From NCBI GenBank assembly GCA_016207165.1, contig JACQQD010000008.1, positions 14,602-78,601 on the forward strand: a DNA stretch of 64,000 bases, read 5' to 3'. The first letter of the stretch is position 1. Every line of letters starts with the position of its first letter. The translations under genes were made by a program, and so were the position numbers. The notes under the pieces are model-generated. The model saw only the letters and a list, made by a program, of their open reading frames with translations, ran no database searches and was not told the DNA's origin. The stretch comes from Candidatus Micrarchaeota archaeon (lineage in GTDB: Archaea > Micrarchaeota > Micrarchaeia > Norongarragalinales > Norongarragalinaceae). Of this stretch, positions 6,377 through 61,956 are shown one piece after another.

Positions 6377-6381
6377 GTACA

Positions 6382-6681
6382 TCACTTTCTCTTGAAGGTA
6401 ATCTTCGGTTCCTTTTTGACGTCTTGGACTCGGCCCAGAATCGAGAGCAGTTGGCTTTCGGTGACTTTGCCGCGGATCTGCCCGCTTTGGACGAGTTGCA
6501 CCAGCAGTCCGACGAGCTGGTCGTACAAGTCCGGGTTGGCCAAGCGCACGTTTTGTATGCGCTCGAATGCGGGCCCGTCCAGGATTTTCTGCAGGATTTG
6601 TCGTTTCTGGTTTTCCTCCACGTGCTTCCGGCGCAGCTGATCGATTTTTTCCTGCTGCGCCTTCTGCCATTCTTCGTTCAT
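6382..6681 (-). CDS. PDCD5/TFAR19-family DNA-binding protein
   Basis: QILQKILDGPAFERIQNVRLANPD...LVQLVQSGQI..KVTESQL; conserved position after S19e. Confidence 0.9.
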   Translation of the reverse strand: MNEEWQKAQQEKIDQLRRKHVEENQKRQILQKILDGPAFERIQNVRLANPDLYDQLVGLLVQLVQSGQIRGKVTESQLLSILGRVQDVKKEPKITFKRK

Positions 6682-8915: not shown

Positions 8916-9011
8916 ATGGGCCTGGAGGGATTTAGGAACCCGGACCGCGGGAACCCAGGTTCCCCCAGTCCTTGGTAACCCCGACCCCTCCTGTTTTCAT
9001 GTGCGAATTGT
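8916..9011 (-). repeat. Stem-loop mini-element A plus duplicated tRNA-Ile 3' end
   Basis: ATGGGCCTGGAGGGATTT at 8916-8933 is identical to 9012-9029; the intervening GC-rich hairpin is related to elements at 29420 and 61537. Confidence 0.8.
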
Positions 9012-9012
9012 A

Positions 9013-9131
9013 TGGGCCTGGAGGGATTTGAACCCTCGGCCACCAGCTTTCCTAGCCAGCGCAGAGGGCGAAACCGTCCTTTGCGGTCGTATAAGACTGG
9101 CGCTCTAAAAACCAGGCTAAGCTACAGGCCC
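9013..9131 (-). tRNA. tRNA-Ile(UAU) with 41-nt intron at position 37/38 (intron 9049-9089)
   Basis: Acceptor GGGCCTG/CAGGCCC-A; D arm GCTT/GAGC; anticodon arm CCAGT-CT-TAT-A|A-GCTGG; T arm GAGGG-TTCAAAT-CCCTC; BHB-like central helix CTTA/TAGG with AAA bulge. Confidence 0.92.
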
Positions 9132-28869: not shown

Positions 28870-29205
28870 ATGCGTTTGCGGCGGGGTCAAGGAACCTTTG
28901 AGTACGTGTTGCTTTTGGGCGGCGTTTTGTTGATCGTGGTTTTGGCTATCGTTGTTTTGCAGCAGACGGCTCAAGAAAGTTTTCGGGACGCCGGCTCCAA
29001 GCAGTGCGCGGCGCGCTTGCTCACGGATTTAGAGTGCCACGATGCCGACGGTTCTTGGAATGCGTGCGAGGACGTGGATGCATCGCGGTATGCGGGGTGC
29101 GTGTTTGGGTCGGAGACGTTTACCGCCGTGAGTCCGAGGGCGGGTTGCGAGGCGTTGGATGACCCCTTGACGGAGCGGTACTGCGGCAAGCCCCCGGTGT
29201 CGTAA
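28870..29205 (+). CDS. Pilin paralog with acidic six-Cys head
   Basis: MRLRRG|QGTFEYVLLLGG; 28881-28970 is identical to 28442-28531. Confidence 0.9.
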   Translation: MRLRRGQGTFEYVLLLGGVLLIVVLAIVVLQQTAQESFRDAGSKQCAARLLTDLECHDADGSWNACEDVDASRYAGCVFGSETFTAVSPRAGCEALDDPLTERYCGKPPVS

Positions 29206-29251
29206 GGGCTTTTGGTAAATGCTTTTTAACGAGGGTCACGTCGTGTCTTTC

Positions 29252-29428
29252 ATGCGGAATAAAGTTCGGGCCCAAGCCGCCATTGAATACATTTTACTGG
29301 TTTCGTTTGGCTTGTTCGTCGTCATCGTCGGCTTCACGTTGGCTTTTTACGTGAAGAGCTTCACGGATTCCGCGTTGGCCTTGGTCGCGGAGAACCGGGA
29401 TGCCATGCTGGGCTTTTTGTTGCGTTGA
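29252..29428 (+). CDS. Small pilin-like protein
   Basis: MRNKVRA|QAAIEYILLVSFGLFVVIVGF. Confidence 0.85.
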   Translation: MRNKVRAQAAIEYILLVSFGLFVVIVGFTLAFYVKSFTDSALALVAENRDAMLGFLLR

Positions 29429-29531
29429 TTTGATTCGCGTTAGCCGGGGGTTCGGGGGAACCTGGGACTATAGGGGGCGGAGCCCCCTGTGGTCCGGGCG
29501 TGAGAACCGGGATGCCATGCTGGGCTTTTTG
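29390..29531 (+). repeat. Stem-loop mini-element B flanked by 30-bp direct repeats
   Basis: GAGAACCGGGATGCCATGCTGGGCTTTTTG at 29390-29419 and 29502-29531; internal hairpin AGGGGGCGGAGCCCCCT. Confidence 0.85.
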
Positions 29532-29580
29532 CTTCGGTAGACGGAAATCCTTTTCTGTCCGTGTATCCTTTTTTCTCTGC

Positions 29581-30096
29581 ATGAAAGCGTTGCGGCGCGA
29601 GTTTGAGGATTTGCATGGGTGGAGGCTCGTTGAAGCGGATCGGGTTTTCCGGTCCAGAAAGCCTCTTGTTCCAGGTCAGCCGTTGGACGTGAGCTTTAAT
29701 TCAGGCATTCGGTTGTATGCGCCTATACTTCGATTTCAGGTTCCTTTGGATGCCGTCCTGAGGCGGAAGCGAGCCGAGGCGTTGCGCGACCGATGGAATC
29801 TGATTCAACGGCCTTCGCTGGACTCCGCAGACTCGCGGGCCAGAATTCGGTACTACCTGGATACGCATCGCTTTCAACGGGTCCGCGATTTGTTTAACGA
29901 TTCGCGATTGCATCGGGACCTCCGTGCGGAAGTGGCGGCTCCACTGCGCACGTTCTTCGGTGGGTTATTGGATTCCGGACGGTTTGACGGGGCGCGGTTT
30001 CAGCCTTACTACGTACTTCGGAAACTCGATGACGCGTCGGGAAAACCCGTTTTGGAGTTGCTTGTTTCCTTTGCGCGGATGACGCCGCAAGGGTGA
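29581..30096 (+). CDS. Hypothetical Arg-rich soluble protein
   Basis: 171-aa ORF interrupting the pilin cluster; no recognisable motif. Confidence 0.6.
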   Translation: MKALRREFEDLHGWRLVEADRVFRSRKPLVPGQPLDVSFNSGIRLYAPILRFQVPLDAVLRRKRAEALRDRWNLIQRPSLDSADSRARIRYYLDTHRFQRVRDLFNDSRLHRDLRAEVAAPLRTFFGGLLDSGRFDGARFQPYYVLRKLDDASGKPVLELLVSFARMTPQG

Positions 30097-61350: not shown

Positions 61351-61509
61351 ATGGCGGTGGCGGTCATGGTTTTGTTGGTGCCCGTGGTGCCGGTGGCGTA
61401 CTGGTTCACGGATCATCTCGCCCCCGTGTTTAACTGGTTTGAGGGCCCCCAGATTCTCGCGGCCACCGCCGTTTTGGCGTGGATGTTTTTCCAGAAGTTC
61501 CACTATTAA
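61351..61509 (+). CDS. Small two-helix membrane protein (tentative)
   Basis: MAVAVMVLLVPVVPVAYWF...ILAATAVLAWMFF. Confidence 0.4.
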   Translation: MAVAVMVLLVPVVPVAYWFTDHLAPVFNWFEGPQILAATAVLAWMFFQKFHY

Positions 61510-61605
61510 AAAGAGCGCCCGAGGTCAGGACTCGAAGGTCGCCCCAGGGGGCTCCGCCCCCTTGGCCCGACCTAGGCCTCGACCCCCGACTAGCTTTTTG
61601 AATCG
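61509..61605 (-). repeat. Stem-loop mini-element C plus duplicated tRNA-Asn 3' end
   Basis: 61509-61536 equals 61606-61632 except for one inserted base; shares AGGGGGCGGAGCCCCCTG with element B. Confidence 0.85.
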
Positions 61606-61612
61606 AAAAGAG

Positions 61613-61737
61613 CGCCCGAGGTCGGACTCGAACCGACGGCCTGCTGATTTCTGTGGATTCAATGAGTTTGCCGACGACCCAAAGTCGGCGGTTACGCTCT
61701 TAACAGTCAGCCGCTCTACCTGCTGAGCTACCCGGGC
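61613..61737 (-). tRNA. tRNA-Asn(GUU) with 52-nt intron at position 37/38 (intron 61649-61700)
   Basis: GCCCGGG/CTCGGGC-G acceptor; GCTGA-CT-GTT-A|A-TCAGC anticodon arm; GTCGG-TTCGAGT-CCGAC T arm; BHB central helix CTGT/ACAG. Confidence 0.95.
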
Positions 61738-61917: not shown

Positions 61918-61956
61918 GAAAAGAAAAAGAAAGAGGAAAAAGGGGGCTGCGCCCCC
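61918..61956 (-). terminator. GC hairpin plus T-rich tract ending the right-hand operon
   Basis: GGGGGCGCAGCCCCC followed by TTTTTCCTCTTTCTTTTTCTTTT, just after the stop at 61967. Confidence 0.65.

Follow-up and report, generated by a model that had tools for sequence, protein, structure and literature searches.

How can one gene possess two endings, with a small folded insert placed between them? The question is raised by a pilin-like gene (locus B) in the window, the whole 64,000-nucleotide (nt) stretch of the Candidatus Micrarchaeota archaeon genome analysed here, and it returns in the same window at two transfer RNA (tRNA) genes (loci A and C). The genome containing the window, designated G000, is that of a DPANN archaeon and comprises 1.27 Mb in 12 contigs. 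We tentatively favour, while granting it somewhat less than an even chance, the explanation that the inserts form a family of non-autonomous integrative elements, which carry a substitute gene end and are served by an enzyme in trans.

A scaffold between two versions of a gene end

The target gene of locus B is an open reading frame (ORF) of 58 codons (29252..29428, + strand). It has no Pfam family at E<=0.01, and its N-terminus resembles, by our reading, the signal of an archaeal pilin. The gene closes with the three codons TTG CGT TGA, which form the element-side tail TTGCGTTGA (29420-29428). Immediately before them lies the first repeat copy (29390..29419, +), an exact 30-nt stretch which is contiguous with the gene body and is the functional copy. 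The gene is followed by the left arm TTTGATTCGCGTTAGCC (29429..29445, +) and by a GC-rich 54-nt scaffold of type I (29445..29498, +), in which a G-rich box precedes a 14-base-pair (bp) hairpin GGACTATAGGGGGC/GCCCCCTGTGGTCC with two G.U pairs. The scaffold scores 73.3 bits with covariance model R2, and its minimum free energy is −36.3 versus −24.9 for the reverse complement. As in this left arm, a T-run and the motif TTGATTCGC recurrently precede type I scaffolds at a constant distance. At the junction (29498..29501, +) stand GCG, identical to the three nt preceding the first repeat copy, and one extra T. The orphan gene end (29502..29540, +) then starts with the exact 30 nt (29502-29531) and proceeds into the native tail CTT CGG TAG (CTTCGGTAG, 29532-29540). 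Both copies encode ENRDAMLGFLLR and a stop, and five of the nine final bases differ, all of them synonymously. Since both copies run on to LLR and stop with synonymous differences, the gene-end repeat measures 39 nt, instead of the 30 nt given in the original prediction, a note made from the letters of the window.

The read evidence consists of assembled contigs of runs X1-X4, which belong to one study, two of the runs being possibly the source of the assembly. A 635-nt contig of X4 spans 29130-29764 with zero differences, and therefore an assembly artefact, named in advance as a way to refute the prediction, is ruled out at locus B. The contigs of X1-X3 stop within the scaffold and run into other copies. 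At 29272-29374 contigs of X2 and X4 also contain a variant of the locus B gene, in which 15 of 103 bases are different and which reads on like the orthologue in genome G001; therefore, a sister species co-occurs in the samples. Upstream, one X4 contig links position 28880 back to 28442 (439 nt back, depth 3), which could reflect either a tandem duplication or a repeat carried by a population variant. A paralogue at C8:47665 was considered as the source of the gene-side tail and rejected, as the 18-nt match is a chance one in an unrelated gene.

The common layout predicted for the three loci is confirmed at all of them, and the strings quoted as shared between them are present. The same design is found far beyond chance in G000, where motif, repeat and hairpin scans combined with inspection gave about 33 copies of a 50-55-nt GC-rich scaffold at 29 loci. 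At 23 of the 29 the scaffold has a version of a gene end on either side, that end being the 3' end of a tRNA gene (9 loci), the 3' end of a protein gene with its stop codon (8), the 5' end of a protein gene with the ATG and some leader (4) and the 5' end of a tRNA gene (1), one further end being unassigned. The repeats, described in the prediction as duplications longer than usual target-site ones, are the ends of tRNA and protein genes, both 5' and 3', and not generic duplications of the target. The copy on the 5' side of the scaffold continues the gene at each of the 22 loci with an identified gene, and the copy past the scaffold 3' end is the orphan; at 5'-end targets, which include ATP synthase subunit D (Pfam E = 4.6e-50), scaffold and gene are on opposite strands. 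Exact repeats are 14-43 nt long, or 39-100 nt with the diverged part, covering the gene ends. The inserts measure 60-200 bp and contain no ORF. They often possess a left arm of about 20-25 nt which begins with a T-run; their left boundaries vary and the scaffold end is constant.

Orphan protein ends keep their coding sense. Synonymy was counted at eight correctly framed loci, with C12~63294 left out and the tails of C3 and C9~97876, where the stop codon comes from the 5' end of the element itself, (A)TAGGAGGGG, read separately. At seven of the eight the copies differ only synonymously (30 codons, stop-to-stop changes included), and at the eighth there are one amino-acid change and two extra codons. 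In genome G009 the two versions differ in amino acids too, like diverged homologues. A single gene has a type II element in G000, in G001 and on a metagenome contig, each time at the same position. Its two 75-nt tails differ from each other at 20, 19 and 11 nt in the respective genomes, with no amino-acid change; between genomes the tails differ at 14-24 nt and at 1-3 amino acids, and the lineage-specific residues are common to both copies of a genome, sometimes via different codons. This pattern means that the orphan is not neutral: either it serves as the working end from time to time, or it is renewed from alleles in use. Orphan tRNA ends, too, track a change in the acceptor stem of genome G002. 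At the locus left out of the count (C12:63100-63700), a region which by sequence reading belongs to an anaerobic ribonucleotide reductase is apparently split in two ORFs. The second of these has the element in its 5' end; the functional copy begins with MQ and the orphan with MEAQCTPH, and a cysteine missing from the functional copy is kept in the orphan.

The junction between scaffold and orphan is irregular in a regular manner. At 16 of 20 loci, as opposed to 9% of mismatched controls, the orphan begins with 3-9 further matching nt, followed by an irregularity and then by the exact stretch. Relative to the functional copy, the orphan is longer by 1 nt at 13 of the 20 loci and by 2 nt at three, has the same length with a mismatch at three and shows nothing at one. 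The nine simple 1-nt insertions are T in five cases, C in three and G in one, hence the inserted base is not always T, as had been supposed. At tRNA targets the orphan begins at the GTTC of the T-loop and the extra bases come after C56. The irregularity may mark the point of strand exchange.

Both tRNA genes of the window, predicted as targets from the beginning, are recognised by Rfam (54 and 57 bits). They contain introns: ARAGORN detects them only with introns allowed and finds none in the window without that option. With it, introns are present in 24 of the 44 tRNA genes of G000, some exceeding 100 nt. At locus A the tRNA gene (9013..9131, − strand) has its functional repeat copy at the 3' end (9012-9029), followed by the left arm ACAATTCGCACATGAAAACAG (8992-9011, −), a type I scaffold (8939..8991, −; 64.4 bits with R2) and the orphan tRNA 3' part (8916..8941, −), which reads GGGTTC, two extra nt CT and then AAATCCCTCCAGGCCCAT. 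At locus C the gene (61613..61737, −), whose anticodon reads as GTT, has its functional copy at 61606-61623. Its scaffold is of type II (61537..61588, −; 70.4 bits with model R1), with stem P1 (GGTCG/CGACC) around hairpins P2 and P3, and the orphan 3' part (61509..61536, −) consists of TTCGAGTCC, an extra T and GACCTCGGGCGCTCTTTT. Close to locus C, at 61942-61956 of the window (C8:76543), and also at C8:81862, the short hairpins GGGGGCTGCGCCCCC and GGGGGCTTGCGCCCCC lie beside A/T-rich runs; they look like plain terminators, with neither the scaffold box nor repeats.

A folded scaffold, abundant in two genera

Covariance models, proposed earlier as a check, were built for both scaffold types, R1 for type II (searched in 68 genomes of the order) and R2 for type I (26 genomes of the family), and covariation is found in both, at a score reached by none of 500 shuffles. 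In type II, stem P1 encloses two hairpins, and 99.6% of cells are paired versus 35-56% after sliding of the partners; compensatory changes are seen in two pairs (CG/GC/GU and GC/AU), and P1 itself is invariant and hence neutral as evidence on P1. In the 14-bp hairpin of type I 95.7% of cells are paired, 7 of the 14 pairs have changes on both sides, and U.G occurs at two positions, in 11 and 8 of 12 sequences. The counts of compensatory changes overstate independence, because the sequences are related. In 20 of 21 copies the predicted fold of the scaffold-sense strand is more stable than that of the opposite strand, with a mean difference of 4.4 kcal/mol. On this modelling, the scaffold is a folded single strand with one orientation. 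In Rfam, at gathering score, only the two tRNAs match in the window and no scaffold family does; for four type II loci at E<=5 the matches are tRNAs and three chance-level ones elsewhere.

The models recover 21 of the approximately 33 scaffolds of G000, and 12 more were recognised by eye, a count which could miss diverged copies; several subtypes are present. According to the ARAGORN list and our reading, a scaffold lies in or at one end of 14 of the 44 tRNA genes. Scaffolds C10~5608 and C11~80507 are identical and lie at unrelated genes. Four of the 29 loci have two inverted scaffolds, often of different types, and some of these pairs face outwards. G000, G001 and G002 represent one genus and G009 a second one, all of them being metagenome bins. 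R1 finds 10, 17, 6 and 12 copies in G000, G001, G002 and G009, respectively, and matches 7 of the 68 genomes, three of these with a single weak match; R2 finds 11, 6 and 10 copies in G000, G001 and G002 and weak matches at most elsewhere among the 26. High copy number is limited to the two genera. The type II pattern also occurs on 12 metagenome contigs, and those copies that are readable with their flanks share the design. Two viral-contig matches proved spurious (glycine-rich coding repeats), and 59 of 65 pattern matches in the genome collection lie in other, mostly high-GC bacterial genomes and were taken as chance without individual inspection.

The family behaves as a mobile one in its copy numbers and in the empty sites of sister genomes, which had been proposed as a place to look. 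The locus B gene lacks the element in G001; there, the tail with its flank (CTC AGA TAG GCGGAAAG) is similar to the G000 sequence on the orphan side and not to that on the gene side. Both G001 and G002 have the locus C tRNA in uninterrupted form. ATP synthase subunit D is also uninterrupted in both and has an independent insertion in G009 after another codon. At the locus A tRNA, G000, G001 and G002 carry elements with different scaffold variants, and in G001 and G002 the T-loop insertion is of 1-2 nt. The proposal of a non-autonomous family, in which the scaffold is conserved and structured and the tail varies and matches the neighbouring gene, is borne out; the family is dispersed and restricted to its lineage.

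These observations also bear on the idea of immobile scaffolds that belong to the host and serve as RNA or terminator modules where genes end, the repeats being local duplications unrelated to mobility. The gene-end position, the left arms starting with T-runs and the presence of some copies at the same site in three genomes agree with it. However, such modules would not be expected to be present and absent at orthologous sites, to reach high copy number in two genera only, or to appear as identical scaffolds at unrelated genes, in both orientations and at 5' ends too. We consider this idea the least probable, with hardly any chance of being right.

Origin of the second gene end

For an integrative element we propose the following course of events. 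The element would consist of the 50-55-nt scaffold, often the left arm of about 20-25 nt, and its own version of the target gene end. In a Campbell-type event it would recombine with the target within the short identical stretch directly after the scaffold 3' end. This would produce the layout seen today: the gene body is completed by the element-side end, with a stop and T-run or with a ribosome site and ATG, and the native end is displaced past the scaffold and becomes the orphan. Loss of the element would re-attach the orphan, so each end would at times be the working one; near-only synonymous differences are then expected, because both ends would serve as working ends in turn. The enzyme would not be encoded by the element and would act in trans, with the scaffold, as folded DNA or RNA, being its recognition site.

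A miniature integrative element is favoured because its design matches that of prophage e14 at icd/icdC. In the published account (PMC13626634), e14 lies between icd and its C-terminal fragment icdC, and its excision brings mostly synonymous changes into icd. As with our loci, direct repeats of a gene end flank the insert of e14 or phage 21 in Escherichia coli and the element-side copy completes the gene; the native end is left as a fragment, and the two ends differ mostly synonymously. Excision re-attaches the fragment there, as it would at our loci (PMC13626634).

Several observations weigh against this explanation. No joint across the locus B element is found in the contigs of the four runs (contigs only), the empty form of locus B has no match in metagenomes, and the available contigs show neither a circle nor an excision product nor an empty allele of this strain. 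Six of the 29 loci have no repeat (solo copies abutting gene ends and two paired copies). In the young copies L108 and L081, and also L112, the repeats are near-identical over 52-60 nt and include the left arm, which a plain long duplication explains just as well. In ATP synthase D of G000, it is the functional copy and not the orphan that resembles the sister orthologues; this fits import from a sister lineage and equally later allelic exchange. One site-specific recombinase serving more than 20 core sequences is not expected, and it is difficult to picture a circle of double-stranded DNA as small as about 110 bp. The candidate tyrosine recombinases are also not tied to the scaffolds: an Xer-like recombinase of about 410 amino acids occurs in 12 of the 26 family genomes, scaffold-poor ones included, and hence is not exclusive to the element-rich genomes, and 13 integrase loci searched with R1 and R2 contain no scaffold.

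The strongest alternative, which we nonetheless regard as unlikely, is a long duplication. The scaffold, with or without the left arm, would insert alone, and the process, whether through cuts staggered over a wide distance or through template switching of a polymerase at the hairpin, would duplicate 15-100 bp of the target; the copies would be identical at birth and later exchange patches with population alleles. The repeats of L108/L112 and L081 accord with it, as they take in the trailer, the left arm and even the scaffold box, and so does the stop given by the element 5' end in C3 and C9~97876, which makes an imported tail unnecessary. The microhomology and the 1-2 extra bases at one junction are what polymerase or end-joining events typically leave. 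Variable left boundaries opposite a constant scaffold end, and a sister-genome-like patch in the functional copy of ATP synthase D, point the same way. However, at locus B the sequence switches sharply from 30 of 30 identical bases to 4 of 9 and then to an unrelated left arm, which decay or exchange with empty alleles cannot yield; the extra base lies between two target-derived parts and not at the boundary of element and target; and no transposase family was found in the searches of G000 and G001. Doubtful as well is a programmable system, in which the scaffold, as single-stranded DNA or RNA, would present the adjoining gene-end copy to an unrecognised enzyme, and strand exchange would occur at the match, a fixed few bases off, with the extra base as the exchange point. 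Retargeting by new adjoining sequence alone would then give one scaffold family more than 20 targets without a known transposase. If the scaffold and the adjoining target copy acted instead as a guide RNA, directing a nuclease or recombinase to uninterrupted alleles, the element would home into them. A conserved strand-specific fold with G.U pairs that adjoins a variable target-matching stretch suits such a role, as do the loci with two outward-facing scaffolds, and the RNA would be a new one, because there is no Rfam match. Yet the TnpB zinc ribbon, IS110 and Cas1 are not found in G000 and G001; the exact stretch also lies beside natural upstream bases in the functional copy, hence the guide would hit its own chromosome; and at 5'-end targets and in tail-to-tail copies the adjoining stretch is in the opposite sense to the gene. 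We rate the guide RNA as improbable.

A further possibility, to which we assign a very small chance, is removal at the level of RNA or translation, where the stretch between the repeats is intron-like or bypassed and both gene ends are expressed in one cell. It would explain why orphans keep perfect coding capacity and track lineage-specific amino-acid and tRNA stem changes, and relatives of the group possess a splicing endonuclease of broad specificity. In G009 the same tRNA as at locus A (L086, C29, approximately 6381-6680) has, besides an anticodon-loop intron, an intervening sequence of about 190 nt in the T-loop, which is closed by a 12-bp helix and sited where the orphan copies of other genomes start. 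However, it is the orientation of the scaffold, and not that of transcription, which the layout tracks. Both strands of 20 loci were scanned for the canonical bulge-helix-bulge (two 3-nt bulges, 4-bp helix), with sites one repeat period apart, and no consistent motif emerged; the scan returned only short palindromes inside the repeats, equally often on the wrong strand, and at tRNA loci nothing beyond trivial 2-bp flanking helices. We note that the integrative element carrying a substitute gene end stays our first choice.

Enzyme candidates and related systems

The absence of a transposase or integrase, stated in the original prediction, is upheld for the interior and the surroundings of the copies, where no DDE, Y1 or IS110 gene is seen. 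Four element-rich genomes (71-90% complete) were searched. The reverse transcriptase family RVT_1 (PF00078) is found in none of them, which lends no support to the suggested insertion by reverse transcription or to a retroelement (group II intron, retron or diversity-generating retroelement). The Y1 transposase (PF01797) and Cas1 (PF01867) are likewise found in none of the four. The TnpB zinc ribbon (PF07282) occurs in G002 and G009 and was not recovered from G000 and G001; the IS110 family is not found in G000 and G001 and occurs only in G009. Tyrosine recombinases are the only breaking-joining family, of seven tested, that is present in all four; G000 has three, which are Xer-like and fall below the XerA cut-off. 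No larger parent element was recovered, as no long copy was found and the flanks of six solo scaffolds contain no distant repeat. In G000 an 11.7-kb island (C1:152884-164696) follows a tRNA gene whose 3' end is overlapped by a 381-codon tyrosine recombinase ORF. The island is closed by a 15-nt repeat of the tRNA end, and two inverted scaffolds lie directly behind this second repeat.

Among known systems, integrative elements that target tRNA genes share the gene-end integration design. Direct repeats of the att type that restore the gene end are found here at 23 of the 29 loci, while an internal integrase gene is not found. Our elements differ from those of the integrase type in their size (about 60-200 bp, with no gene and no linked integrase), in their number (some 30 in 1.27 Mb, with over 20 different targets, 5' ends among them), and in the conserved folded scaffold which abuts the orphan, with a regular extra base of 1-2 nt at the junction. 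MITEs (miniature transposable elements with inverted repeats) and the repetitive extragenic palindromes REP and REPIN are likewise small non-autonomous GC-rich hairpin repeats with many intergenic copies, some as inverted pairs. However, unlike MITEs, single copies here have no terminal inverted repeats, one terminus being the scaffold and the opposite one a left arm or gene tail unrelated to it; gene ends of 14-100 bp take the place of duplications of 2-10 bp; and no parent insertion sequence and no Y1 transposase were found in the four genomes.

As judged from the letters alone, the omega RNA of IS200/IS605 TnpB/IscB and the IS110 bridge RNA appear similar in that a structured end scaffold adjoins a variable target-matching stretch. 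Those systems do not duplicate gene ends, whereas repeats are present here at 23 of the 29 loci and their enzymes are not found in G000 or G001. Integron attC sites and Xer-using single-strand phages rely on a folded single-strand site that is read by its shape, extra unpaired bases marking the strand. They use a tyrosine recombinase in trans and one fixed chromosomal site and produce no gene-end copies; unlike in them, nothing ties our scaffolds to the Xer-like genes. Casposons are archaeal, insert at the 3' ends of tRNA and protein genes with longer-than-usual duplications (14-15 bp), and have Cas1 and terminal inverted repeats, whereas Cas1 was not found in the four genomes here.

Miniature elements that replace gene ends have no prior description in the literature searched, which is not proof of absence, and they look like a new kind. 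If the proposed mechanism is true, they would be the smallest known gene-end-replacing integration, reduced to a recognition fold and a targeting copy, and they would be active in ultra-small symbiotic archaea which are otherwise poor in mobile elements. They would account for the orphan tRNA and gene fragments in such genomes and would offer a route for swapping gene ends, promoters and terminators between lineages. They would also point to a trans-acting enzyme that accepts many targets, of interest for programmable DNA insertion. Silent gene fragments that stay under coding constraint would have a concrete and testable example in them.

Last but not least, a second kind of insert occurs outside the window, at C6:92109-92232 and C6:95368-95514 of G000. 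It lies in the 5' ends of two tRNA genes, is about 100-115 bp long and AT-rich, and contains a palindrome such as CTTTCTTTTCCGAAAAGAAAG and a promoter-like stretch. Repeats of 16-17 nt of the tRNA 5' end flank it, and the native promoter stays with the orphan fragment.

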